DNA of 64,000 nt from Caldilineaceae bacterium (GCA_018003515.1 JAGNDO010000020.1:6742-70741), one strand, 5' to 3'; numbered from the stretch's first letter, positions 15,450 through 63,723 are shown. The notes: generated by a model not told the origin, from the letters alone. Numbers and translations are program-made.

Positions 15450-16031
15450 ATGGCAGAAGTCAAGGCGAATCCAATTGTGCAGGGGTTGAGCGGTGGGTTG
15501 AGCCGGGATCTGATGTTCCGGCGGCTGCGGGATGGGCGCACGATCTTGTGTGTGAAGCCGGACTTTTCCCGGCGGGTCTTTAGCGAGGGCCAGTTGAGCC
15601 ACCAAGAACGGTTCAAGCTGGCGGCGGCCTATGCCAAATGGGCGGCCAAAGCCCAGCCGATCTACGCCGAGCTGGCCGCGGGGACCCTAAAGTCGGCCTA
15701 CAACGTGGCGCTCTCGGACTGGTTCCACGCCGCGGAGATTCTGGCTGTGGATGTGGGCGGCTGGACCGGGGAAGCCGGGGCAACCCTGCGCATCCAGGCC
15801 CGGGATGATGTGATGGTGGCCGGGGTGTCGGTGCTGATCCGGGTGGGGGAGACGGTGGTGGAAGCGGGGGACGCCATCCAAACCGACGGTCTGTGGTGGG
15901 ATTACGTGACCCAGGCCGCGGTCAGCGGGGAGATCAGCGTGGGGGTGCGGGTGGTGGATTTGGCGGGGAATGGGGTGGAGGCAGGAGTGGGGGTCGATAA
16001 ATCAAGCGTCAGTTCACCGCAAGGCGGGTGA
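15450..16031 (+). CDS. Hypothetical protein with Ig-like (V.V.A.D.AGN) C-terminal segments
   Basis: ATG 15450 lies 7 nt after AGGAGG. No catalytic motif recognised. The last ~30 codons are duplicated downstream at 16874-16961. Confidence 0.6.
   Translation: MAEVKANPIVQGLSGGLSRDLMFRRLRDGRTILCVKPDFSRRVFSEGQLSHQERFKLAAAYAKWAAKAQPIYAELAAGTLKSAYNVALSDWFHAAEILAVDVGGWTGEAGATLRIQARDDVMVAGVSVLIRVGETVVEAGDAIQTDGLWWDYVTQAAVSGEISVGVRVVDLAGNGVEAGVGVDKSSVSSPQGG
15906..15993 (+). repeat. Direct repeat DR-left (3' end of CDS 15450..16031)
   Basis: An 88-bp match with about 10 mismatches to 16874-16961. Confidence 0.8.
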
Positions 16032-16167
16032 ACTGGCGACCGCCAAAATCGGTGCTTCCTCGCCCCGGCCTTTGGTGATATACTTCGGCCATGCGTGGGG
16101 TCAAGATTGTATGCGATATTGCCCCCAATTCTACTCACTGCCCCGACGAGATCGGAGACATGTTCTG

Positions 16168-16491
16168 ATGGCGATCGTTGAATCAACACAAATGCTTGAC
16201 AGTCTACAATCGCTATATGCGGCCGGTTTCCACGAACCGTTTATAGACAATGCCTTGCGCAAAATTGTGGACCGTCAGATCGATCGGGATGAAGCCGATC
16301 TGACCCGCATCACCGCCCAACTACAGGCGTTCGAACAGCGCTTCGGGCTTTCCTCGCTTGAATTCTGGCAACGTTTTCAGGCGGGAGAGATGGCCGACAG
16401 CGCCGATTTCATGGAGTGGAATGTCTTCTGCAAGATGCGCGAACGCATTCGCGCCCGGCTTCACATCCTGCGCGGCGGGAACGGCGCGTGA
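16168..16491 (+). CDS. Small helical protein, putative antitoxin partner of the downstream DUF6516-like gene
   Basis: 107 aa starting at ATG 16168. GTGA overlap with the next gene. The assignment rests on context only. Confidence 0.5.
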   Translation: MAIVESTQMLDSLQSLYAAGFHEPFIDNALRKIVDRQIDRDEADLTRITAQLQAFEQRFGLSSLEFWQRFQAGEMADSADFMEWNVFCKMRERIRARLHILRGGNGA

Positions 16492-16877
16492 ACGACCCCG
16501 CTGGCTATCTGGCCGAAATTGAACTGGCTTTGGTGAGCAGCCCCGTGCTGGCCGAAACCCATGTCACCCGTTCCTGGACCAACGCCGATGACGGCTACAT
16601 CCGCGTCCGCGCCACCCTGGTCAATGGCGATTTTCTGGAAGCCGCCGAGTATTTCGTCCTGGATGAAGGAGAGATCAAGCCCGTGGATTATCGCCACCAA
16701 TGGATGGACGGCGCAAAAAGCACGCTACGTCGTCGCTGGGACAGCACACCGGATCATCCAGGCCTGGCCAATTTTCCCCATCATGTTCACGTGGGCGATG
16801 AGCACACGGTGCAACCCAGCCACCCCACGGGCATTCTCGACCTGTTGCGCACCCTGGAAGCCGAACTCGATCTGTAA
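16488..16877 (+). CDS. DUF6516 / TumE-like putative toxin
   Basis: The motif RRRWDSTPDHPGLANFPHHVHVGDE matches the R.DN..HH....T.PHHKH pattern that I recall for this family. 129 aa with a GTG start. Confidence 0.5.
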   Translation: MNDPAGYLAEIELALVSSPVLAETHVTRSWTNADDGYIRVRATLVNGDFLEAAEYFVLDEGEIKPVDYRHQWMDGAKSTLRRRWDSTPDHPGLANFPHHVHVGDEHTVQPSHPTGILDLLRTLEAELDL

Positions 16878-16961: not shown

Positions 16962-17363
16962 TAGTGGCGGAAGCGGGCTGATAGCCCCCACTAATCGCCT
17001 CAACTGCCATTGCGTGAAAACCAAATTCACGGTATGATTCGGTTGCCCAAATGACCTCTCACCCGACACAATAGGCGGCTTCCTAGACCTCATGGATTCA
17101 ATCCGCAAACCTAGCAAACTCAAAAAAACAACCCATCACCCATATGCCAGAGTACCTATTTTCAGCGATGCCTTATTGAGAATGGGTGGCGTTTTCGTTT
17201 GCCAAAAGGCTTTTTCAAGCCGAAAGACGGTCTGCTCTTTTTCATGCTCGGTCCCACCATCAACCGATGAATCAAAGGAAGCTTTTTCTAAACCTCTGCG
17301 TTCAAAAACGCCCTTGTCATTGCTGGCTTAACCACATCAAACAAAACCCAGGACTTCTTCAAA

Positions 17364-18758
17364 ATGGCCAACTACATCCTGTTTTCTCGACATGTCGATT
17401 CAAACGATGGATCAAGCTCACGGACAGCACCCAGCTTTGAATTTATCCTATCCGCCGAACTGAGAAATGGGGCAGATCTCCGAATCGACGACAGACTCCT
17501 TCTGCTCTCAAAACAACATGGAACTACCCAGATTTTACCCCAGACCTTACACGTCCAATTGATTCAAGGAACCACTATCACGACTCAGTCTTTGGCTCGG
17601 TATCGAAACCCTGTCGTGGTTGATGAAGCTCGTACAATTTTGCAGCGTGGTCTTGTCCCCGGATTGAACGCTGTTACCGAAGATGAATTTCAGGCAATCA
17701 TTGATCGGATGGGAGGCGTTCGTTTGAGCGAAATTGAGATGTTGTCTCATATCAAACGTTACATCGCCGCTCGTGGATACTACTTCGATGATGAAACCCT
17801 ATACAACTACCATATCTGCCTAAAGACCCGGCCCTTCGTAATTCTGGCCGGACTGTCGGGGACGGGAAAATCCAAGCTCTCACAACTCTACGCAGAGGCA
17901 ATTGGTCACACAGTCAGTGAAGGACGTTATCTTCGATTAGCCGTCCGTCCAAGCTGGAATGACGATCGCTACTTACTGGGTTATTTCAATACTATCTCAA
18001 ATGACTACGTGACAGAACCTGCTCTGGATTTCATTCTAGATGCTGAAGCAGATCGGCGAAATCTCTACTTCTTCTGCCTGGACGAGATGAACTTGGCCCA
18101 TGTCGAGTATTATTTCTCTCAGTTTCTTAGCGCTATGGAGGAAGAAAATCCAGCAGATCGACGAATTATCCTTTATGGACGTTCGTTGGAAAAGCGCTTG
18201 GCCAACCAGAGTTCCCGACCGGGGATTGATCGGACCGTTTTCTTGCCCACTAACCTACTCTTCACGGGGACAATAAACGTGGACGAGACTACCCAACCGA
18301 TCAGCGACAAGGTAATAGACCGCGCCAATACCATTGAATTTTTTCAAGTCGCATTGGATAGAATTCCCGATAAACAGCCACCTCCGGAACCTTTGGATAT
18401 ATCGGCAGATCTCTGGCATAGCTATACCAACCCGAAGCCAGACACTTCCTATCGAGAGCATGTGATTCAAATCAGCCAGATTCTGAACGATGGACAATTG
18501 GGCTTGGGCTACCGGGTCGTGCGAGAAATTGAGCGCTATCTAGCTAACAGTCATGGATTACTTGAACCAGACGTCGCCTTTGATCTCCAAGTGAAGCAGC
18601 GGGTGCTGCCCCGAATTCGTGGGGCAATGCCGATTCGGGATATGCTGCGACGACTCCAGGCATATGTAGAGCAAAATGGCTGGAGCCGCTCTGGAGAACG
18701 CCTCAAAGAAATGGAAAGCAGGTTGAAACGGGATGGCTACACCAGCTTCTGGCGTTAA
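17364..18758 (+). CDS. McrB-like AAA+ GTPase (type IV restriction B-subunit family) with unassigned ~135-aa N-terminal domain
   Basis: Walker A is FVILAGLSGTGKSKL (17850-17873) and Walker B is FFCLDEMNLA. The LAVRPSWNDDRYLLGYF segment and TGTINVDETTQPISDKVIDRANTIEF correspond to the McrB QFHPSYSYEDF and GTMNTADRS regions. Confidence 0.8.
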   Translation: MANYILFSRHVDSNDGSSSRTAPSFEFILSAELRNGADLRIDDRLLLLSKQHGTTQILPQTLHVQLIQGTTITTQSLARYRNPVVVDEARTILQRGLVPGLNAVTEDEFQAIIDRMGGVRLSEIEMLSHIKRYIAARGYYFDDETLYNYHICLKTRPFVILAGLSGTGKSKLSQLYAEAIGHTVSEGRYLRLAVRPSWNDDRYLLGYFNTISNDYVTEPALDFILDAEADRRNLYFFCLDEMNLAHVEYYFSQFLSAMEEENPADRRIILYGRSLEKRLANQSSRPGIDRTVFLPTNLLFTGTINVDETTQPISDKVIDRANTIEFFQVALDRIPDKQPPPEPLDISADLWHSYTNPKPDTSYREHVIQISQILNDGQLGLGYRVVREIERYLANSHGLLEPDVAFDLQVKQRVLPRIRGAMPIRDMLRRLQAYVEQNGWSRSGERLKEMESRLKRDGYTSFWR

Positions 18759-20427
18759 TAGTTGGCTCTTGCTGAACGATCAACCGGTCTCCTTTCACCT
18801 GGGGGATCATAATCTAGACGCAAAAACTCAGGAGTACGCTGCCAACCACTTCCGAGTGACACCGGGCGCGCCTGAACGGATTGAACTTTGGATTGATGGG
18901 AAATTGCTAGAGACAGAGATCTATGGACGTTGGCTTTGGTGGCCAAAAGGATTTGCGGGTCTTTATCAACTCCAGATACGGCGGGGAACGAAACTATTGG
19001 GTGTGGCACAGATTCGTGTCTATCCTAGTAAACTCTCGTACGAACGATATCAGGTCATGCTCACTGATATAAGTAAGGTTGCCACGGATCTGCTTTTTCA
19101 GATCAACGCACCAGCTAGTGAACAGTTAAGCGTAAAATACAAAGGTGACAAGCCTGCCGCCATCCGGGAATACGAACAGATCAAGCGAATCATCTTTGAA
19201 ATGAGCCGTATCTTTCCACAAATTCGCCGGCAGCCTCACAAGCAGTTGTCAACTCTAGCCGAAGAGCGACTAATCCATGAGATACCCTACTTCACGCCAG
19301 ATATTGAACCCATCTCAGGCAATTATGTGACAATCAATAGGCATCAGGACCCAGATAGTCTGGAACCGATATGGGTGCCCGAACGATGGCAGGTCAATCG
19401 AGCGGTGCCGACCTACGATGTCTACGAAAACCAATTGCTCAAGTATTTTCTTTGGCGACAGTTGATTCCACGTATTACACACATTCAAGATCGAGCCAAA
19501 CAAGAAATTCGTCGTCGTCAACAAGATCTGGCTATCAAGATCGCCCGAGATTGGGAGGATGACGAAACGCCGTTAATTGCACATCTAACCGAAGTCGTTC
19601 GGACATGTGAGAAGCTACAGCGCGTTTGCACCCGTTGGGGCAGCGAGCCGTTTCTGACTGAGGTCAAACCTTTGGGCACAGGCGGGAAGCCGACACAGGT
19701 ACTCCAGAAACACCCCTATTACAATCAGTTCTACCGGCTCTACTTGCGCTTTCAGCAACATCTGCGCTTCAGCTTTGATCCAGATCCCTATCTTCACCGT
19801 TTGGCTCTACGTAAATTATCAACCCTTTATGAGATCTGGAGCGTTTTTCAAGTGACCCACATCCTGCTTGGCTGGTTGAACCAAGCAGGTTATCAGATAA
19901 TTTCCACAAATCGCTTTTATACCCTGGTGGATGATCAGTTCCATCTGGATCTGGATCGAAATGGGAGCATTGTCCTGCAGAAAGGACCGACCGAGATACG
20001 ATTACGCTATGAGCCAGCCTATCCTTCGGATCGGGAAGTAGCCTCTGGCCTTGTCTCAGTTCGCTCCCGCTATCCACTGACACCGGATTTGAGCGTAGAG
20101 GTATGGTCCAATCGTGAGGCCAAACGCCTCATTATTTTTGATGCCAAGTATAGAACCCAAGAGGAACATGGACGCAGTTACTTCTTACAAAAGGATCTGG
20201 AGAAGATCGCCTTTTATCGAGAGGCGGTGCGCTGGAAGAGCGGCGTAGCGCGTCAGCGCCCCAAGTCTATTGTTGCCAGTGCCTACATTCTATATCCAGG
20301 AGATGTTTTGGAGCATGATCCTCATTACCCAGAAGTTGGCGCCTTGCCATTGGTACCAAAGTTAAAAAACGCCAAGTCAACCCTGCGTGCGCTATTGGAC
20401 ATCATGCGCAACGCCCAAATTTTGTAG
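18733..20427 (+). CDS. DUF2357/McrC-like PD-(D/E)xK nuclease subunit
   Basis: The C-terminal nuclease motif is PDLSVEV...LIIFDAKYR (20131-20154). It overlaps the McrB-like gene by 26 nt if ATG 18733 is the start. Confidence 0.7.
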   Translation: MATPASGVNSWLLLNDQPVSFHLGDHNLDAKTQEYAANHFRVTPGAPERIELWIDGKLLETEIYGRWLWWPKGFAGLYQLQIRRGTKLLGVAQIRVYPSKLSYERYQVMLTDISKVATDLLFQINAPASEQLSVKYKGDKPAAIREYEQIKRIIFEMSRIFPQIRRQPHKQLSTLAEERLIHEIPYFTPDIEPISGNYVTINRHQDPDSLEPIWVPERWQVNRAVPTYDVYENQLLKYFLWRQLIPRITHIQDRAKQEIRRRQQDLAIKIARDWEDDETPLIAHLTEVVRTCEKLQRVCTRWGSEPFLTEVKPLGTGGKPTQVLQKHPYYNQFYRLYLRFQQHLRFSFDPDPYLHRLALRKLSTLYEIWSVFQVTHILLGWLNQAGYQIISTNRFYTLVDDQFHLDLDRNGSIVLQKGPTEIRLRYEPAYPSDREVASGLVSVRSRYPLTPDLSVEVWSNREAKRLIIFDAKYRTQEEHGRSYFLQKDLEKIAFYREAVRWKSGVARQRPKSIVASAYILYPGDVLEHDPHYPEVGALPLVPKLKNAKSTLRALLDIMRNAQIL

Positions 20428-20446
20428 ATCATCTAGAGAGTTTATT

Positions 20447-21379
20447 ATGCCGTCAGTCGCTGAACCAACTTTTCTATTCCGTAACGAAATATCACCGTCA
20501 TACATCGAACCTCTTTTCTTGCAGATGAAACCAGACATCTGGTTGGACACCCATGACATGAAAAGGATGCTCCATGACAGCGGCCTGGACATCGGGGGAA
20601 AGGACATAGTTACCAACAGCAAACTTGTCTGGTCACTCCTAAGAATTGTTGACTCTAGATTGGAACAACAAGGACGGAGCACTGTTAGATTTGTCCGATT
20701 AGCACCTTTGGGCGAGTATCTTCACGATACCCACAGCACCAATCCAGATCTCTTCTATGATCTCTTTCACTACCTCTTCTACTCAGCTTGGCGACGTACC
20801 CAACAGGATAGGTTCACTCGCTTTTGGCTATATGCGGCCTGTTGTGATTTGGCTTGGCAGCAGGCTCCCACCGAACTAGCCACATCCAAACTAACTCGCC
20901 AGTTGCAGAGAGAATGTGACGCCGCTTTTCCTAAATCCCACCCTTCCTTTTCAGGCCGATCTGTTGGCGGCATTCTTCCATGGCTTCAGGTGCTTTCCCC
21001 TCCATTTCTTCGACAAAGTGAGAAACGCAATCTGTTGGTCTCAGAGCGCCGCCGGCATTGTACCCCTCAACTTTTTCATTTAGCTTTGGATTTAGTTTAT
21101 GCTGCCGAAGGCCTCCAGTATGGCACGGCTATGGCTATCGGTCCACAGAATCAAGAAGCCATTTGCAAAGTTTGTCTGCTCGATCCAGACCGATTTTGGG
21201 CCATGGCCGAATTGACCGAAATGACTATTCGCGGTGTGGAACTCCAGCGCGGCCAATGGGGAAGTAGTCTCGTACTCAAGAGCAAACCCAAATGGATCGA
21301 CCTGCCCGACTATATGGAGAGCGATGCAGATAACGACACGGCAGATGATGAGTCAGACGAAGATGAGGAGGACGTCTGA
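20447..21379 (+). CDS. Hypothetical protein with poly-acidic C-terminal tail (DSDADNDTADDESDEDEEDV)
   Basis: 310 aa from ATG 20447. No motif recognised. The stop overlaps the next start (TGATG). Confidence 0.6.
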   Translation: MPSVAEPTFLFRNEISPSYIEPLFLQMKPDIWLDTHDMKRMLHDSGLDIGGKDIVTNSKLVWSLLRIVDSRLEQQGRSTVRFVRLAPLGEYLHDTHSTNPDLFYDLFHYLFYSAWRRTQQDRFTRFWLYAACCDLAWQQAPTELATSKLTRQLQRECDAAFPKSHPSFSGRSVGGILPWLQVLSPPFLRQSEKRNLLVSERRRHCTPQLFHLALDLVYAAEGLQYGTAMAIGPQNQEAICKVCLLDPDRFWAMAELTEMTIRGVELQRGQWGSSLVLKSKPKWIDLPDYMESDADNDTADDESDEDEEDV

Positions 21380-21867
21380 TGGATCAGCATACTTTAGAGG
21401 CACGTATCCGAGATCGGATTGAAGACGATTGGCTGACGCCCTCTCAGCTTCAGGCCTGGCAATTCTTGCAGCGCTTTGACGGCACACCCAATCGGGTTGT
21501 CAATATCTATGGTACAGAAGGCAGCGGCAAAAGTTTTCTAGCTTGGTTTCTTGAGCGCAAGGGCCACGCCATCCATAGTGACTGGGATCGACGTACCCCA
21601 CCTACTCTTCCTCGAATGGTCCTGGACAATGCACCCACGGATCGCTCATCGGCCCGGTCTATCCGCCCCCTAGTGGACGCGCTGGGACTGCAACAGATCA
21701 TTCTAATAAGTCGCCGGCGTGTTGATGAGGCAGCCATGCCAGCCTTCGAACTAGAGGTTACGAACGATGATATTGAACACTTTGCGGCCAACCTCTACCG
21801 CCATTTTGGAATTGTGATGCCAGAAATAATCTACCCCAACTTCAAACTCATTCTGTCCGAGTTATAG
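21379..21867 (+). CDS. Mini P-loop NTPase (162 aa)
   Basis: Walker A is NIYGTEGSGKSF (21511-21534), with a Walker-B-like RMVLDNA. No lid or other domain is present. Confidence 0.6.
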   Translation: MDQHTLEARIRDRIEDDWLTPSQLQAWQFLQRFDGTPNRVVNIYGTEGSGKSFLAWFLERKGHAIHSDWDRRTPPTLPRMVLDNAPTDRSSARSIRPLVDALGLQQIILISRRRVDEAAMPAFELEVTNDDIEHFAANLYRHFGIVMPEIIYPNFKLILSEL

Positions 21868-21879
21868 CAGGAGTTTTTC

Positions 21880-24800
21880 ATGGAACTAAAAAAGCTAAAC
21901 CCTATTTTGAAAAAAGAGTCTATCCTCAAGACTGCAAATGCTGCGGAATTGGAGATAGCGCCTAACGATGTACTCGAACGTTATCAGAGTTATGCCATGA
22001 CCCATGTACCCCTTGGGGATACCAAAGAGCAAATGGCAAAACTCGAGCGGGTTATTACCCAGAATAAACGGTGTGCCATCGGCAATATTGTGGGGCCGTA
22101 TGGCTATGGAAAGACCAGCACAGCAGTCCATCTCTGGAATGAACTGAGAAAGAAGCAAATCCTTGCAGTACCACCCTTTCAGTGGAGCGACCTGGAAGAA
22201 CTGCTTAACGCTGTCTATCACTGGACTCGCTTTGAGTTCTCGCTTGGTCCCAAACAGTTCATTCCCCAACTTGATGTCATTTTCAAGCAGTACAGCCAAC
22301 AACGATTGGAAGAGGTTTCCGATAAATTCGGCGCTGACACCATTAGGAAATTGGCTGAAGGCGGATACCTGCGGCTAAAAATTCAAGCCAGTGATATAGT
22401 TGGTTTTTACTCAGATGTGTCCAATCTTGGTATCGAGGCTGGCTTCCAAGGTTTGGCTGTTTTTACGGACGAACTTCAGGCCACCATCGCCGCATACCAA
22501 CCTTCCAGAGATCAATTTTATGCAGATCTTTTTCAAATTGTAAAAGATGTACTGGGGCTAACCGGCCAATGGGCAATCGTACTGACGATGGATGATGGCA
22601 CGGAAGGTATTATCGCCAGAGATCGGTCCGACATGTTGCAACGTATGCAGCAAAGCGCTCTCTACTTCCGGGTGAAGGATGTTTACAATCGACGGGAATA
22701 TCCGGCTGAACTCTGGGCTGCATTTGAACAACGTTTTGCCTTTGATGGCAGGGAGATCCTGCCTCAACTGACTCTCGACTCAATCGGCCAAATTGCAGCT
22801 CGGCCCGACTTAGGGGCTGGGCCGCGCATGGTGACTCATGCCTTCACCCTGGCTATTCAACACTACGATCGTCGCCAGACCGCTTACCAACCGCTCCAAC
22901 TTGTCAATGACTTTTTGGACGGACAAATGGTTTTTGACCAACGAGGTAAGTTTCGCACCGATGTCAATCGTGCCTTACAACATGCCGATGTGAACAAGTC
23001 GGAGGATCATCAGAAATTAATCAAGCTGCTGGCCGCCTATCCCATGGGTTGTGATGAGGATATCTTATCCCATTTTGGCTTACTTGACGTCTTTCGTGAA
23101 TTCCCAGCCTTGGCACGCCGGGAACTCATTGCCCAGCAATCAGGTGGATACATTCTGCGCTATCTCGCCGCAGAAGAGATCGCCCCGGAACAAATTGAGC
23201 AACGACTAACCAAAGAATTTGTCAATCGCTTTTCCCCCCAGAAAAACTATGCGGATAAAGCGGTCGAAGGCTTCATGAACCAACTGCTCTTAGGCTCGAC
23301 ATTTCCCAGTAAACAATGGAAAGTAAAGTCAGAAACTGAGGTTAATCACCGAGATATCCGCTATCGACTGGCACTGCTTGAAGGCACCTTCAGTGATGCT
23401 TACCCAGACCGCCTAGTTGCACTAACCGTTGCGGCCGTACCTCAAGGCAAACCACCAGAATGGCGAAAATTGCATCCTGATGCTGATATCGAACTGCGCT
23501 TTGAATTAACCTATCGGACACTATCGGGAGAGCCAAACGGCCTTTTGATTCGACCAGATCGGCCAGACATAGGGGTCTTTCACATTAACCTCAACGTCTT
23601 TGAGCAGGAACTCGCTGAAAAGCAGATGCCTGATTTCCTGTTCGACTACTATACAGCACCACAGATGAATTCTCTACTCGCTTTAGCATTCATAAATCAC
23701 CTAGATAGTAATCGTGGCGAGATACCTGACGATCAATACCGTATCAATGCAGTCTTGAACCCGATCCGGCAGTATGCTCTTTCAATTCTGCTGAACGATC
23801 GACTCAAGTGCTATACCGAAGATTTCGTTAGCGAATCCATTGGCACGCGAGTTATTGAAGATTTGTTCAACACCCTCTGCCAGAGGCTCTATCCGAACTA
23901 TCAGACGCTCAACACAGGTCGTAAGTGGCAGGATAATCTACAACAGTATGGTTATGCTCTTGAGACGGTCATCAACGAAGAGGGGATCTCCATCGCTCGG
24001 GGACGACGCATGTGGCAAGCTACCAAAGAGGATGTCGCTGATGCATTCCACATTCCTGGACGACGTCTTAACAATCTAGACAGTCTGCTCGACACCTTGG
24101 ACAACATGATCGAAAAGGTAGACTACTCAGGGCGCACGCCCAACAGTATGGTGAAACTCAAATTTCAGCTTCACCCCTTGGAAAAAGATTGGCTAGAGCG
24201 CATTGACGCGTCAAATGAGACGGTTCGGATGGGAAACGGGGACAAAGCCCCAGCTGTTCCCGCAGAATATCTCTTCGATTCAGCAAGAGAGCAGGGTTAT
24301 CGGCAAGAAGAAATCGGTGAAGTCTTGCGGTTGCTACAAGCCCGCAAATACATTGACCATGAGCCACGAAAGAACATGCTGGTACGCACGGTTGATAACG
24401 TAGACGATCTAAAAGAAGCGGTTGCAGCGCAGATCGAACGTATGACCGAACAAGTCAATCTTCTCACTAGTAATCTTCCTGATTTTGAGGGTGGTCGATA
24501 CCCCATGTCAACCCTTCGTACGACTCTAGAGTCATCTCAAGATCGAGATGAAGTAGAGGGGCTAAGGGTTGATGTCAGAGAAGTTGAAAGCAGACTCCGC
24601 ACATTTCTCTCTGGTCGCATAACTGATGTACGTCAGAAAGTAAAATCGTCGATTGTATTTCTATATGAGCGTGTCCGCCAAGGAATTCCAGATTGGTTGA
24701 GTGAAAGTCTGCCAGAAAGCCCTCTTACTGACATCTTGGAACGCCAACGTTCATCTTTAGCAACTATCTATCAAACTAACATTGATGAGCTAGAAACTCT

Positions 24801-25800
24801 GCGCAAGGATGTGCTGAGGGAATTTCAGTCAATCCAAAGCGGCAATCCTGCAGAGGAAATGGTTGGCCTATACCATCTTCTGCGCAAAATCACTGATGAG
24901 CGAGGGCCAATCATCCGAAAGCTGGAGGGGAGAGATGAACTAAAAAACGATCTGCATTTGTGGCGAAAGGTTCTCGAAAATTCGGCGAAGTTACAACTTC
25001 ATGCCAGCCGAACTGCCCAACAAGACCACGGCACGTCACAATTCGCCAAGCAGGCTGAAGATCTTTGGAAAAGATTACAGGAAGAGCTTGAGACTCAACC
25101 TAATGCCGTGCTGGAACTTCATAGAAAAGTATACGCTCAAATCGCTGAGCTATTTCAAAGCATGAAATCCTGGATGGATAATAGACGCGAAGATTTCCTG
25201 AAGCGATGCCGCTTATTTGAATCTCTGTTTGCTAGTGCTGAAATCACCCTATCCCTTTCCATCCCATTTGATTCTGAACGCCCCTCAGAATCATACGCTG
25301 TCTTCAAGGAAAATGTACGAGCCAAACTTTCCCAGACGTTGGATGATCTGGATGTACAGCTCAGCCGAGCCAGCCAGTCGATTCAATACGCCATCCAAGT
25401 GCAGAACCTTGATCTTCGCTCGGCTGAAAAGGGAATTCAAGCCTGCAAGCAGAAAATCCCTGAGTTAATGGAACTGCAGCGATCTATCACATTGGACGAT
25501 CTGGATAAATTTTCAACGCAAATCATTCATCCCCTCGCCGCTTTACAAAGAGAACGCCAAGCCATTAACGGTCAAGTGCAGCGTTCCTTGAGCCGGCGTG
25601 AACCAGAGGGTTCAGAGATCCAACTCATGGAAATGTTACGCACTCACGCTTCAAGTGGTCGAGTAGATCTTCGCAGCTTGATCCTGCAATTACTTAACCA
25701 GCGGCAAGAGGATGTTGTACTCAAAGACCTGATGGACACGCTTCAGTCCCTCTTTCAGAAGAATCAGATTACTATCCATATCAATCTGATGGGGGACTAG
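21880..25800 (+). CDS. Large (1306 aa) P-loop NTPase with long C-terminal helical/coiled-coil-like region
   Basis: GCAGGAG lies 7 nt upstream of the ATG. Walker A is GPYGYGKTS (22093-22116) and Walker B is LAVFTDELQ. The C-terminal ~500 aa are rich in E/L/Q/R/K heptad-like sequence. Confidence 0.7.
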
Positions 25801-25876: not shown

Positions 25877-25924
25877 GGGGAAGGGGTTTTCTGCAACCCG
25901 CGGGTTGCAGAAAACCCCTTCCCC
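25877..25924. terminator. 48-nt palindrome, two perfect 22-bp arms with a central CGCG (GGGGAAGGGGTTTTCTGCAACC CGCG GGTTGCAGAAAACCCCTTCCCC)
   Basis: Read directly. It lies between the end of the five-gene block and the pbpC start. Confidence 0.6.
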
Positions 25925-36848: not shown

Positions 36849-37367
36849 CTACGGCTTGCGATCCGCCGGAATATAGGGGATAAACCCCTGATCGAATGCC
36901 TGTTCCTGGACCTCACGGGGCATAGAGCGGATGTCCCGGATCAAGCCATTGACCTCCAGCATCCACACCAGGGGGTTGCTGTCCAGCTTGCTGGGCAGGG
37001 TCCAATCCGGGTCTAGCTGGGACATGCCGAACAGGTCACGGATCTGCTTGGACCTGCTGACCCCGGTACTCTTCTTGAAGCCAAAGGCGGCGCACAGATC
37101 CTCTGCCTTCATGAAGGGCTTGCTGTTTTTATCAAACAGGAAATTGACCGTGCCCAGGACATAGACGATGCCACAAGCCCAACTCCCCGGCTTCCCGCTC
37201 AGGAGGGGGGACGGGCGCTTGCGTCCCAAGGCCGCGGCCAGTTGGCGGGCCAGGGTAGCGTACTCATCGTTCAGGTGTTGACGGCAGACGGCGTCGGTCA
37301 GGTCGATGATGGCCTGATAGGCTGGTTCTACAGCCCTGGGGACGGATTCGGATTTATTGGTGGGCAT
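36849..37367 (-). CDS. Conserved hypothetical protein (DUF6398-like)
   Basis: 172-aa ORF with good coding look. The family assignment is from memory of similar sequences only. Confidence 0.5.
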   Translation of the reverse strand: MPTNKSESVPRAVEPAYQAIIDLTDAVCRQHLNDEYATLARQLAAALGRKRPSPLLSGKPGSWACGIVYVLGTVNFLFDKNSKPFMKAEDLCAAFGFKKSTGVSRSKQIRDLFGMSQLDPDWTLPSKLDSNPLVWMLEVNGLIRDIRSMPREVQEQAFDQGFIPYIPADRKP

Positions 37368-37422
37368 GGGGTGGGGTCCTTGGGTTGGGTGGGGTGGTTG
37401 TGAATAGGCCTGTTAGAATCAT

Positions 37423-38148
37423 TTACGGGAGATGTTTTTCGATGATTTCCTTGATGTATGCGGGTACGTCTTTTTGAAGCTCCAACGTCCGCCTCTTAAG
37501 TCGATCATAGACGTCAACTTCATCTCCTGACCAAATAAGATCGACCCGTCTAACTTCTCGCATTGCAACATGATCGTAGTCTTCAGGATAGGCCCAATAG
37601 CACTTGAGGCAGACGTTCGGATTCCTCAGTTCCAGCCAATTGGCACAATGTTCACACGACCACGATTTGGCCCGGTTTGCACTTCCCGAAAGCAGCATGT
37701 ACATGGCCGGATTCTCGGTGACATCGAGATCGTCGCCAATCACCTCAAAGGGAATCCGATGATCAATTTGAAGATCTTGCTCATCAAAGTCCTCCAGGTA
37801 AATTGCACAGCGGCTACCATCTCGCTCAATTAATTGTTGCTTCAGTTTTCGGGTGAAGGCTGTTCGACCACTCAATTTGCTGAAACGGGCCTTCTTGAAA
37901 TCACCGAATCTATAGGCTCCAATACTTCGACCATCTGTTCCAGTGACACGAAATGTCTCCAAAGGAATACCCTGTTCCCGGACATCACGGGCAGCACGTG
38001 GCGGATGATTATAGCCGTAGGTATCGCGTAGTTCTTCGGTAGTGACGTATCCGTGTTCCAGAATGTGCTCGATCACGGTACGAGGGCGTTTGGCCGTCAC
38101 AGCCTTACACCTTTTCAAAAACTCCTCAGGCAAATCCTGTTCACTCAT
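37423..38148 (-). CDS. HNH endonuclease with N-terminal wHTH-like domain (putative restriction endonuclease)
   Basis: HNH-type motif LQIDHRIPFEV...SGSANRAKSWSCEHC...CLKC. ATGA overlap with the stop of the upstream methyltransferase gene. Confidence 0.7.
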   Translation of the reverse strand: MSEQDLPEEFLKRCKAVTAKRPRTVIEHILEHGYVTTEELRDTYGYNHPPRAARDVREQGIPLETFRVTGTDGRSIGAYRFGDFKKARFSKLSGRTAFTRKLKQQLIERDGSRCAIYLEDFDEQDLQIDHRIPFEVIGDDLDVTENPAMYMLLSGSANRAKSWSCEHCANWLELRNPNVCLKCYWAYPEDYDHVAMREVRRVDLIWSGDEVDVYDRLKRRTLELQKDVPAYIKEIIEKHLP

Positions 38149-39071
38149 ATACGTCTCTCCAGAAGGCAAAGCTGTTCCCCGCGTGTATATCGATAAACAA
38201 ACGGAATGCTCGAAAGTTGATCCGCTAAGGCTGGCGACAGATATAATGACTCAATCGTCACATCATTGCGACCTAGCAATGTGGCTTGGGAAGATCTGCC
38301 AGCATCAAGCTCGATCAGCGTAAGGTTGAGTTCGTCAGGAAGAGCCTCACCATAGACTTTGTCACCTGTTCGCCCGTCGTAGCTCACTAAGTACCGAATT
38401 CCTCTATGATTTAGTTCGTCAAGAGCCTCAATAAACTCAGATACATCAACCGACTCCAAATACCGGGAATCTCGATTTCCACAGACCCCCTGGTAAGGTG
38501 GATCCATATACACCAAATCATCAGGTTGCGCTTCTTTGAGCATCACGCGGTAGTCCACCGAAGAGACTGATGTTCTTCCCTTCAGAAGACGTGAGGCGCC
38601 AAGCAATTGAAGTCGCATAGTTTCTGGCTTCATACCTTTACGGCGATTATCTGCGCTCTGATTGAACTGCCCTTGAGAGTTGTACCGTACAGAAGCTTTC
38701 ACACATCGCGCCAAAAGATAGAGAAAGAGAGCAGGATTGCCTGTGCTGTTGAACTCCTCTCGGACACGCGTATAGTACGCTTTTGGATCATCGAGTTGCT
38801 CCAGCCAGAGCCGTTTGTACTCGGCATATACATAATCTGGATTATCAATGATTTGCCGCCACAGAGCCATCAATGGCCCATTCAGATCATTGACCCGATA
38901 CTTTTTGGCTATATTATTTGCTGCTGAGGCGATAGTAATTGCCAAAGATCCCCCGAATGGTTCGTAAAGAACCCTCACATTCGAGGGAAAGTATCTAAAG
39001 ATCTCCCCAGCCAAATTTCTCTTGCTTCCCTGGTATGGGATTGGATGTGGCAGTGTTGTCTTCTGCTTCAT
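38145..39071 (-). CDS. Dam-family (D12 class) N6-adenine DNA methyltransferase
   Basis: The N-terminus is IPYQGSKRNLAGEI. Motif I is EPFGGS and motif IV is DPPY (VYMDPPYQG). Confidence 0.85.
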   Translation of the reverse strand: MKQKTTLPHPIPYQGSKRNLAGEIFRYFPSNVRVLYEPFGGSLAITIASAANNIAKKYRVNDLNGPLMALWRQIIDNPDYVYAEYKRLWLEQLDDPKAYYTRVREEFNSTGNPALFLYLLARCVKASVRYNSQGQFNQSADNRRKGMKPETMRLQLLGASRLLKGRTSVSSVDYRVMLKEAQPDDLVYMDPPYQGVCGNRDSRYLESVDVSEFIEALDELNHRGIRYLVSYDGRTGDKVYGEALPDELNLTLIELDAGRSSQATLLGRNDVTIESLYLSPALADQLSSIPFVYRYTRGEQLCLLERRI

Positions 39072-39174
39072 ACGTTTTCACTTTCTGTTCCGAACGGCGG
39101 ATAAATGCTCATCCGTCAATACCATAACTCACGGAGGGGTGGGCAATCTGCATCACACGACGCAGAGTCTCATA

Positions 39175-39624
39175 TTAGGTCTTGCGAAACCATATTGGAT
39201 GTGCGACGACGACTCCCGCATCTCTGTCAAGATAAACCGTGTAGCCTGACAACACCTTAAGATCACCAGAGAGTTTCAGCACAAGATTGCCAGCGACAAA
39301 ACCATTGGAAACCGGCTCCTCAAAGGATAAAAGTAGCTGACCGTCTCGGACACGACCCACATACTTAAAAGTGCGTGAGAGCGTTTTTCCACTTCGGCTC
39401 GTTGTTCGTGTGACATCGGCAACAATTCGGTTCCCTCGTTGTCTCAATATAGCGGCACCGACTGCCACTACTTTATCCTCGGAATCGAAAAAGGACCATT
39501 GACCACTCAATTTTGGTGCATGATACCACCATGCAGAGAAAAATGGTGTTAGTAAGCGGAAAAGAAGCCAAGAAGTTACTGACAGAAAAATACCAGCACC
39601 AACACTGATTAGGAAGTCGTTCAT
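39175..39624 (-). CDS. Membrane-anchored hypothetical protein
   Basis: ATG 39624 lies 4 nt after the stop of the MNT gene. It has an N-terminal hydrophobic helix followed by a beta-rich soluble part. No motif recognised. Confidence 0.5.
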   Translation of the reverse strand: MNDFLISVGAGIFLSVTSWLLFRLLTPFFSAWWYHAPKLSGQWSFFDSEDKVVAVGAAILRQRGNRIVADVTRTTSRSGKTLSRTFKYVGRVRDGQLLLSFEEPVSNGFVAGNLVLKLSGDLKVLSGYTVYLDRDAGVVVAHPIWFRKT

Positions 39625-39628
39625 GGGT

Positions 39629-39982
39629 TCAATACCTAATTTTGACTGGCTTTGAATTGACATTCTTCTCGGCTGTCCAGATAATCTGAGCCGAGTTCAA
39701 AATCCCCCTACGCCGAATCCAGTTATGACTTCCCTCAACGGCGCGCTGGCTGACCAGATCGACGTCACGCCCAAATATCTCGCTTAACTCGTTCTCGATC
39801 TGGATATGGTCCAGCAATCCCGGACGGGCCTGAACATTGAACATGACCAAAAGGTCAATGTCGCTGGAATCGGTGAAATCTTCCCCCAGGGCTGAACCGA
39901 ACAGCGCAAGTTGACGGATATTCCACCGTCGGCAAAGTTCTGAAATGGCTGTGTGGGGAATACTTTCGACAAATGCGCCCAT
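39629..39982 (-). CDS. MNT-type minimal nucleotidyltransferase (antitoxin-like, Pol-beta superfamily)
   Basis: ATG 39982 is preceded by GAAGGAGG. It carries the GSALGEDFTDSSDIDLLV motif. Confidence 0.75.
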   Translation of the reverse strand: MGAFVESIPHTAISELCRRWNIRQLALFGSALGEDFTDSSDIDLLVMFNVQARPGLLDHIQIENELSEIFGRDVDLVSQRAVEGSHNWIRRRGILNSAQIIWTAEKNVNSKPVKIRY

Positions 39983-62928: not shown

Positions 62929-63723
62929 CTACATTCTTGAAAGAATTTCTGTCTTTTTCGTTTGGAATTCTTGTTCACTGATCGCTCCTGCATCCTTGAG
63001 GTTACATAAGTCTCTCAAGATTTGGGCCAATTCTGAATGATACTGATGCGAGACTGTGGCTGCAACTTGAGTTACCTCCTCAGGGATCGCCGTTAATCCT
63101 TGCTCAACGCGAAAAAGACGGTTGTGCCACTTGTTAAACTCGCCTATTACCGTCGATGCGGGGCTAGAACCGGGACCATCACCAAACATCATAATATCAC
63201 CTGCACAAACTTCAACTACAAGGTGCATTCGTGCAGCTGCGTACTCATAAAGCCTCTCTAAAGTGAGGCTGTTGATATCTTTTTCGCTGAAATCCCAGAA
63301 TTCCTTTTCGTATTTATCTACACTGGAGTACTGCATTGCTGATCTAAGCTTATTCTCCACATCAGCCAATGTTTTTGCTTGCATCGAAACATATTTTGGC
63401 TGCCCATACGCTGGCTGCTTAATTTGGAGTACAAGAGTTCCATCTTCAAGTGTTTTTATTCCTGTTTCGGTTTGCTTTCCTGATGATGCATCCCAATCTC
63501 TTATCATCAACCAAGAAATCGTGCTTCCAACAAGAATAATTACAAGCGGAACCGGATTGGCACTGTCGAGAAACAAAACTATAGGAGCAATCAGCATTGA
63601 TACTGGAACTAGGATTGCACCAATGACACCTGTCAAGCCCCAAAAATGATATGCAACCAAGATTGTTATCACAAGGTCATACCCGCCTACGACAAAAGCG
63701 ATTATTTTTCCAAGAGTCTTCAT
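62929..63723 (-). CDS. Membrane protein with C-terminal SHOCT domain
   Basis: Three N-terminal TM helices. The C-terminus NLKDAGAISEQEFQTKKTEIL fits the SHOCT pattern. The gene is AT-rich. Confidence 0.6.
   Translation of the reverse strand: MKTLGKIIAFVVGGYDLVITILVAYHFWGLTGVIGAILVPVSMLIAPIVLFLDSANPVPLVIILVGSTISWLMIRDWDASSGKQTETGIKTLEDGTLVLQIKQPAYGQPKYVSMQAKTLADVENKLRSAMQYSSVDKYEKEFWDFSEKDINSLTLERLYEYAAARMHLVVEVCAGDIMMFGDGPGSSPASTVIGEFNKWHNRLFRVEQGLTAIPEEVTQVAATVSHQYHSELAQILRDLCNLKDAGAISEQEFQTKKTEILSRM

Follow-up and report, generated by a model that had tools for sequence, protein, structure and literature searches.

A five-gene cassette of a Caldilineaceae bacterium with a McrBC-type pair and a BRC-type core: an apparently undescribed effector variant

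Introduction

When a McrBC-type gene pair shares an operon with three further conserved genes, is it one defence system or two that happen to travel together? The question is raised by a stretch of 64,000 nucleotides from a Caldilineaceae bacterium (GCA_018003515.1, JAGNDO010000020.1:6742-70741; called the window here), in which five co-directional genes, A to E, occupy positions 17364-25800 of the plus strand. The original prediction, made by a model from the sequence alone, had taken A and B for a McrB/McrC-type pair, left C-D-E outside any named system and regarded the whole as a candidate undescribed defence system. Here, we followed up this prediction with translation, profile and structure searches and a comparison of homologous loci (given L numbers below). 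We consider it probable that A to E form a single defence cassette acquired by horizontal transfer, in which C-D-E is the core of the BREX-Related Capture (BRC) family and A-B a McrBC-type motor and nuclease.

BRC has been described with seven components, namely PglZ, a BrxC-like ORC/Cdc6 ATPase, an active STAND-NTPase, a DUF4007 protein, HerA, GNAT and TGT (Rakesh & Krishnan, NAR 2026, PMC12839542). The STAND-NTPase is the counterpart of BrxB and the DUF4007 protein that of BrxA (PMC12839542, January 2026); HerA is stated to be universal in BRC, and PglZ was the search anchor of that study (PMC12839542).

Results

An operon of five genes in a low-GC island

Open reading frame (ORF) calls and translation of the window reproduced the five predicted ORFs, their junctions and the positions of their motifs. 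Neighbouring genes abut or overlap: A and B overlap by 26 nt, B and C are separated by 19 nt, C and D overlap by 1 nt (TGATG) and D and E are 12 nt apart. The genes lie in an island of ~8.8 kb with a guanine-plus-cytosine (GC) content of 48%, and the AT-richer block that had been pointed out is evident: the GC fraction is 0.47-0.50 along 17-26 kb (0.45-0.50 for the island as a whole) vs 0.60-0.65 in the flanks, with a step down at ~17000 and a step up at ~25850. Genes A-E are the only gene content of this island.

Genes A and B are a McrB/McrC-type pair

Gene A (17364-18758, plus strand) encodes a McrB-like AAA+ NTPase of 464 aa that is recognised by the PADLOC model PDC-M26A (8e-44), a name for which we found nothing in the literature; Pfam returned only a weak match to AAA models. 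Its motifs GLSGTGKS (Walker A, 17850-17873), LDEMN (Walker B) and INVDETT (NxD-E) are invariant in 17 homologues. Because the last of these signatures reads NxD and then E, A is placed in the NxD branch of the McrB GTPases, a branch described as unusual, uncharacterised and often associated with methyltransferases, to which the CoCoNuTs also belong (Bell et al., eLife 2024, PMC11090510). In searches against the PDB, A as a single sequence gave nothing usable, and its profile gave E. coli McrB (6HZ4/6UT6) as the best match, weakly (E = 0.16-0.36). Gene B (18733-20427, plus strand) encodes a McrC-like protein of 564 aa with DUF2357 (residues 72-337, 1e-21) and PDDEXK_7 (residues 364-524, 5e-16); P451, D452, E456, D470, A471 and K472 of its PD...E...DAK site are invariant in 17 homologues, and 20131-20154 translates as IIFDAKYR. 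Judged by sequence, DUF2357 would be the McrB-activating domain in B, and the nuclease site appears intact and of the DNA type. Neither single-sequence nor profile searches of B against the PDB gave anything usable. The PADLOC model, DUF2357, PDDEXK_7 and the invariant motifs together bear out the assignment of A and B as a McrB/McrC-type pair.

The N-terminal domain of A (~residues 1-95) is hypervariable, with 25% identity in the clade vs 79% for the AAA+ domain, and residues 1-123 in 26 diverse homologues obtained no Pfam or PDB assignment. An EVE/ASCH/PUA-like reader was considered for this domain, but a single ASCH match in 26 members (E = 0.067) and one weak match to PDB chain 6N0S, named only 'AAA_5 ATPase' (E = 0.28), are insufficient for an assignment. 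The nearest relative of A outside the cassette is a protein of 1293 aa on a plasmid of Ca. Chlorohelix allophototropha. It carries EVE at residues 39-171 and HARE-HTH at 757-817, and its residues 873-1293 are 55% identical to residues 46-464 of A; the A-aligned part, including the part that matches the N-terminal domain of A, falls after EVE and HARE-HTH. An Eco57I-type N6 methylase and a helicase lie upstream of it on the plasmid and a DUF2357 McrC downstream, without C-D-E, and such methylases and helicases are the neighbours of the standalone relatives of A. From this alignment, A resembles a McrB that has shed its reader and DNA-binding domains. Since A is without the EVE and HARE-HTH of its closest standalone relative, target choice has probably been passed to C-D-E, perhaps shared with the small hypervariable N-terminal domain of A.

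Genes C, D and E correspond to the BRC core

Gene C (20447-21379, plus strand) encodes 310 aa from its ATG, which is also the length of the NCBI call for the identical protein P0121 of a Caldilineaceae metagenome-assembled genome (MAG); a GTG at 20387 is open as well and would give 330 aa. The AlphaFold2 model of C (pLDDT 92) is built of winged-helix-like modules, and the top Foldseek match over its whole length is SspB (6JUF/6LB9, E = 7e-5, probability 1.0, TM 0.55/0.50). We take SspB to be the solved DUF4007 protein. The acidic tail described earlier is present, with 14 acidic residues in the last 25 and a composition that is conserved across homologues, but the SspB/DUF4007 fold means that C is not the featureless protein it had been taken for. 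SspB is among the structural homologues of BrxA, and DUF4007 has been described as BrxA-like (PMC12839542), which makes C the putative BrxA counterpart. C is also homologous in sequence to the C proteins of loci of the HerA/PglZ/TGT type.

Gene D (21379-21867, plus strand) encodes a small P-loop NTPase of 162 aa, which we assign as the BrxB counterpart on the basis of a BLASTP match to MBN1891044.1, a BRC STAND-NTPase listed in the supplement of PMC12839542 (36% identity, E = 6e-24). Pfam, NCBIfam and PADLOC gave weak generic AAA matches only. Its Walker A motif YG.EG(S/T)GK and Walker B motif hhhLD(D/N) are invariant in 15 homologues, and 21511-21534 translates as GTEGSGKS; from these motifs the NTPase looks active.

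Gene E (21880-25800, plus strand) encodes 1306 aa and is assigned from predicted structure and Foldseek as a BrxC-like AAA+ ATPase of the ORC/Cdc6 clade. The structure prediction covers residues 1-1200 (pLDDT 88), and the top matches of the AAA+ domain are A. pernix ORC2, DnaA and ORC/Cdc6 (probability 1.0). In the model, the AAA+ domain is followed by a lid, a winged helix-turn-helix (wHTH), an alpha+beta domain of six strands with a two-helix connector, a pair of wHTH and finally a coiled coil of ~465 aa. From residue 842 onwards, the modelled chain is helical; the N-terminal NTPase and long coiled coil foreseen for E are thus both found in the model. The same order is given for BrxC in PMC12839542. 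All ATPase motifs are retained, and 22093-22116 translates as GPYGYGKT. The Pfam model BrxC_BrxD (PF10923) scored 19.6 bits with E, below the cut-off of 22.2, and such a sub-threshold match recurred in 12 of 18 E family members (E < 0.1), while a profile of E against PDB sequences returned nothing meaningful. E homologues are ~1300 aa long and mostly from Chloroflexota. They form a small, distinct family: when 1.84 billion representative proteins were searched exhaustively with phmmer, only 310 relatives came up. An SMC/Wadjet-like C-D-E was considered and discarded, as the one AAA+ head of E is N-terminal and of the ORC/Cdc6 type, unlike a split ABC head. The fastest-evolving parts of the proteins, which on sequence grounds are candidates for self/foreign discrimination, are found in three of them: the N-terminal domain in A, the first wHTH in C, and in E the AAA+ insert (105-186), the beta domain, the final wHTH and the coiled coil.

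The loci of distant E relatives link these assignments to BRC. They have C and usually D immediately upstream of E and a HerA-like DUF87 ATPase and a PglZ-like protein downstream, and some also carry a TGT/DpdA-like gene and GNAT. Each of C, D and E has its homologue in the triplet of the TGT-PglZ-HerA-GNAT loci L024, L095, L101 and a Haloplanus plasmid, which have the published BRC architecture; over the full length of E, identity to the E proteins of HerA/PglZ/TGT loci is 24-31%, and the Haloplanus homologue is named 'BREX system ATP-binding domain-containing protein' by NCBI. The view that C-D-E falls outside any named system has therefore to be given up, since the triplet is gene-for-gene homologous to the DUF4007 / STAND-NTPase / BrxC-like core of BRC, and the earlier remark that the size order of C-D-E recalls brxA-brxB-brxC turns out, from the counterparts of the three genes, to have been the right lead.

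The partners published for this core are missing. A DUF87/HerA gene was found neither in the island of the window nor in any McrBC-linked locus, and the same is true of TGT and GNAT. PglZ-like genes (X360, X364 and X420) occurred only in sister classes, with none in the cassette. The cassette is also without a modification gene, a PglX-type methyltransferase or a PAPS reductase.

The five genes are kept together in other genomes

For the analysis of synteny, we defined the close clade by an identity of 36% or more to the E of the window, and counted as informative those with at least 2.4 kb of sequence upstream of C. A and B lie upstream in 26 of 27 distinct informative loci, in the same order, and the context of P0086 adds one further case with A and B. 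The A/B overlap of 26-29 nt and the C/D overlap of 1-4 nt are kept across cassettes, and dozens of unrelated contigs show all five genes in this order. This arrangement is far beyond chance. The flanks vary: phosphatase and PPK2, type I restriction-modification (R-M) and AbiE, GmrSD and a PLD-like gene, or a BR-type system with DUF499, DUF1156 and a helicase. As the flanking genes differ from locus to locus, the five genes form a mobile unit, and among its neighbours elsewhere type I R-M, AbiE, GmrSD and the DUF499 BR-type system are defence genes. The cassette is found mainly in Chloroflexota, the close clade comprising ~90 clusters at 90% identity and 3-4 at 50%, and no relatives were found on viral contigs.

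Pairwise distances of A-E correlate in 15 distinct cassettes (r = 0.80-0.97, Mantel p = 0.001). In a neighbour-joining tree of 69 E proteins, all McrBC-linked E fall in one clade, sister to HerA/PglZ-linked and PglW-linked clades; on this tree, the McrBC link appears to have arisen once, in a clade without HerA and PglZ. The sole exception among the informative loci is L046, where genes for a LuxR regulator and an oxygenase, and not A-B, precede C; its position nested in the McrBC clade indicates a secondary loss of A-B. Starting from A, two of three contexts held the full cassette, and in the third (L107) A-B is followed by an integrase. Synteny, co-divergence and the single clade thus uphold the earlier claim that C-D-E is genuinely linked to McrBC.

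Several other E loci call for comment. In L108 (1-18408), the cassette lies directly downstream of a BR-type cluster of DUF499 ATPase, DUF1156 and SNF2/NOV_C helicase, so that two BREX-related systems of different kinds are adjacent. L040 (4081-6411) has a PglZ-domain protein of 776 aa after a close-clade E (47% identical), on a contig that is cut off upstream, and L010 (155-7255, a Chloroflexia MAG) contains frameshifted fragments of E homologues on both strands and looks like a decayed or misassembled pair of E copies.

Points against a single system and alternative explanations

Some of our results weigh against reading the five genes as one cassette with a BRC core and a McrBC effector. 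C had no match in Pfam, NCBIfam or PADLOC, the DUF4007 model included (the canonical haloarchaeal triplet is likewise without a DUF4007 or DUF6079 match), and E did not match Pfam DUF6079, DUF499 or the NCBIfam BREX models, which leaves the sub-threshold BrxC_BrxD match as the sole Pfam link of C or E to BREX. Canonical BrxC is absent among the 310 phmmer relatives of E, and homology to true BrxC rests for that reason on fold, domain order and the assignment in the literature. Sequence searches with A and B gave weak matches to solved McrB/McrC structures or none. Co-divergence proves co-inheritance and not physical interaction. Finally, A-B occurs alone in L107 and on the Chlorohelix plasmid and C-D-E without A-B in L046, and since each half can occur alone, the coupling is not obligatory in every genome.

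These solitary halves also speak for the most serious alternative, namely that two independent systems travel together: an autonomous type IV McrBC, whose A would read modified DNA with its N-terminal domain, and a BRC-type core that either no longer has effectors of its own or relies on genes located elsewhere. The hypervariability of the N-terminal domain of A, as in McrB specificity domains, would fit this alternative, and defence genes cluster in islands anyway. We nevertheless judge it unlikely, since gene order, spacing and the overlaps of 26 nt and 1-4 nt are kept down to 36% identity of E amid unrelated flanks, all five proteins co-diverge, and the McrBC link has a single origin exactly in the clade without HerA and PglZ. 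An effector-less C-D-E core would be non-functional by analogy with every other class, and the nesting of L046 in the clade and the integrase next to L107 make both look like cases of secondary loss. Next in order, and likewise unlikely in our view, is that C-D-E is a regulator or safety catch of a toxic McrBC, or a backup layer that acts once McrBC has been inhibited by a phage. In a cassette that has no modification gene, some restraint would be needed on a McrBC lacking reader domains; BrxA inhibits DNA binding by BrxC, idle/active switching has been proposed for BrxB/BrxC, and the acidic tail of C is conserved in composition. This explanation differs from licensing of McrBC by C-D-E only in the sign of regulation, between which sequence does not discriminate, but E keeps its ATPase motifs and DNA-binding modules, which fits an active, DNA-engaging role. 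Very improbable, to our mind, is a module for maintenance, competition or DNA processing of a mobile element instead of anti-phage defence. The low GC content of the island, the TumE toxin gene just upstream and the plasmid location of some E homologues would agree with such a module; on the other side stand the typical defence-gene neighbours in other genomes, the lack of relatives on viral contigs, and the fact that every component family is known only from defence systems. Neither an integrase nor a transposase, tRNA or flanking direct repeats were found in the window.

Proposed mechanism

Licensing or targeting of McrBC by C-D-E is consistent with all findings. Defence function, physical coupling, order of events and what is sensed are inferred, and the main precedent for the mechanism is type 1 BREX (PMC13326643). 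There, BrxC dimerises via its C-terminal domain, and its self-association and DNA binding are controlled by ATP. BrxB, to which the AAA+ domain of BrxC binds, forms the bridge to PglZ, a nuclease, and DNA binding by BrxC is inhibited when BrxA binds to it; for BrxB/BrxC, a switch between idle and active states has been proposed. E would, as BrxC does, dimerise via its coiled-coil C-terminus and assemble on DNA under ATP control; C, with its winged-helix-like modules and acidic tail, may modulate or direct DNA binding; and D would contact the AAA+ domain of E and bridge to the effector as BrxB does between BrxC and PglZ. Upon recognition of foreign DNA, the E/D/C complex would recruit or release a complex of an A hexamer with B, which would then translocate and cut via the invariant PD...DAK site of B. 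McrB and McrC would thereby take the place of HerA (a hexameric translocase) and PglZ (a metal nuclease), a ring translocase and a nuclease being exchanged for another of each.

McrBC cleaves when its translocation is blocked, and one may speculate that the DNA-bound E/D/C assembly could be such a block.

Other effector sets on homologous cores

The cores homologous to C-D-E are found with McrB and McrC, with PglZ and HerA, with HerA and a 320-aa domain fused to D, with a PglW-like NERD-kinase, with TGT beside twin convergent C-E pairs, and with TGT, PglZ, HerA and GNAT. We propose, tentatively and with some doubt, that C-D-E is a portable platform for sensing invader DNA that is independent of the effector and has at least five or six effector sets. 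If so, the McrBC version would work without DNA modification, a BREX-type core alone would recognise foreign DNA, and this core would license a well-understood GTP-driven nuclease that gave up its own readers.

In L015 (9092-19830, Ktedonobacter robiniae), L069, L070, L076, L090 and L111, a C-E core without D is followed by a PglW-like protein of 1350-1430 aa, composed of a NERD nuclease, two kinase domains and a STAND-like P-loop, and then by a protein of ~530-550 aa. This set reaches Bacillota, L111 being the B. thuringiensis plasmid pKK1, and looks like a type 2 BREX-like effector set on a C-E core. Two divergent C-E pairs in convergent orientation are present in L020, L021, L097, L098, L100 and L102 (Chloroflexus and relatives), with a TGT/DpdA-like gene beside one pair and without D, HerA or PglZ; the two E copies fall in different deep branches of the tree. 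In L011-L014, L016, L071, L088 and L094, D is fused to the C-terminus of a ~320-aa domain (477-524 aa in total). A reading of these long, class II fusions as D plus PglZ was rejected, as the extra 320 aa lie N-terminal to D and have no similarity to PglZ-like proteins or Pfam. The loci have HerA and no PglZ-like gene, and the ~320-aa domain may therefore be the effector. L112 (Haloplanus sp. HW8-1 plasmid NZ_CP098519.1, 2529-14936) is a canonical TGT-C-D-E-PglZ-like-HerA-GNAT locus; it adjoins QueC, QueE and 6-pyruvoyl-tetrahydropterin synthase, genes of the preQ0 pathway, which supports 7-deazaguanine DNA modification in that class.

Surroundings of the cassette in the window

The low-GC leader at 17000-17363 (plus strand), where GC falls from ~0.6 to 0.45 at ~17000, is presumed to hold the promoter region of the operon. 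A simple scan of its plus strand gave no promoter-like match, and a comparison with Rfam gave no family; the promoter and terminator scans yielded no more than expected from shuffled sequence. At the right border of the island, where GC regains the host level and 77 nt past the stop of E, lies a perfect 48-nt palindrome (25877-25924) with arms of 24 + 24 nt that are 100% complementary and no loop. It is unique in the window, with 0 such palindromes expected by chance, and is possibly a terminator, a protein-binding site or an insertion boundary.

The island is bordered by a TumE toxin gene on one side and by genes for a class A penicillin-binding protein and an alpha-2-macroglobulin on the other. 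The TumE-family gene (16416-16877, plus strand), immediately upstream, is itself in high-GC DNA; an ORF at 15970-16491 without a Pfam match overlaps it and may encode its partner. A separate low-GC island on the minus strand, 12 kb from the cassette (36849-39663), contains a Dam-like D12-class N6-adenine DNA methyltransferase (38145-39071), an adjoining ORF of 248 aa (37423-38169), a DUF6398 protein (36849-37367) and an ORF of 162 aa. It is probably a small R-M system, and its adjacency to the cassette is not kept in other genomes. At its end (62929-63723, minus strand), the window has a third patch of low GC, which encodes a SHOCT-domain protein.

Discussion

How BREX-type cores (BrxA, BrxB and BrxC) sense foreign DNA and switch on a nuclease is still unresolved after a decade of work. 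In the cassette described here, the same kind of core would be wired to McrBC, which is among the best-characterised motor-nucleases and for which assembly, NTP hydrolysis and cleavage are easily assayed, and the lack of a methyltransferase removes one confounder of the read-out. The natural swap of HerA and PglZ for McrB and McrC is a ready-made experiment on the contribution of the core, and the loss of EVE and HARE-HTH from the McrB partner leads to the testable prediction that targeting has moved to C-D-E.

Among known systems, the cassette shares most with BRC: its C-D-E is homologous, in the same order, to the DUF4007-type protein, the active STAND-NTPase and the BrxC-like ATPase, and sister clades of E carry the published partners HerA and PglZ, with or without TGT and GNAT. 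It differs in that these four partners are replaced by a McrB/McrC pair upstream. McrB, McrC and DUF2357 are unmentioned in the BRC paper and its supplements (PMC12839542). Type 1 BREX likewise combines a DNA binder of the HTH/wHTH kind with a small STAND/AAA-like partner and an ORC/Cdc6 AAA+ protein of 1200-1300 aa, and E and BrxC have the wHTH, alpha+beta domain, wHTH and C-terminal coiled coil in common; in contrast to type 1 BREX, the cassette has no PglX, PglZ or BrxL, D keeps the Walker A and B motifs whereas BrxB is inactive, and the BREX models of Pfam and NCBIfam are not matched above threshold.

E. coli McrBC and the NxD branch resemble the cassette in having an AAA+ NTPase gene followed by an overlapping gene for DUF2357 and PD-(D/E)xK. 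The cassette differs from them by an A protein without a recognisable modified-base reader, by the absence of a methyltransferase and by three extra conserved genes in the operon. CoCoNuTs, too, combine a McrB of the NxD type with a coiled coil and reside in defence islands, but there the coiled coil is fused to the McrB homologue (CnuB) and RNA-binding or HEPN parts are typical, whereas here it is on a separate BrxC-like ATPase and the nuclease site of B is intact. Because A has no coiled coil it is not a CoCoNuT protein, in line with the original prediction. DUF6079 and DUF4007 do not appear in the CoCoNuT census, where BREX figures only as a neighbour system in the same predicted superoperons.

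With SspABCD, the cassette shares the SspB fold, which the model of C appears to adopt over its whole length; SspB has been reported to nick DNA. The pairing of C with E corresponds to that of DUF4007 with BrxC in type 4 BREX. Both systems differ from the cassette, which lacks SspA/SspD and the PAPS-reductase sulfur machinery. The best experimental precedent for the proposed logic is MANTIS (DUF499 BR), in which DNA recognition by an AAA+ ATPase and a co-regulator sets off a motor-nuclease that is a separate effector, although MANTIS marks self with a methyltransferase and uses a helicase-nuclease, as opposed to a McrBC effector and no methyltransferase here.

The BRC core and McrBC are each known, and the literature that we searched held no description of the two combined. 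The expectation of an entirely undescribed system is accordingly replaced by a narrower one: the cassette is apparently an undescribed effector variant of the described BRC family, and also an accessory-module variant of NxD-type McrBC. What is new is the combination, by which the published BRC family, defined via PglZ and HerA, is extended to members with neither.

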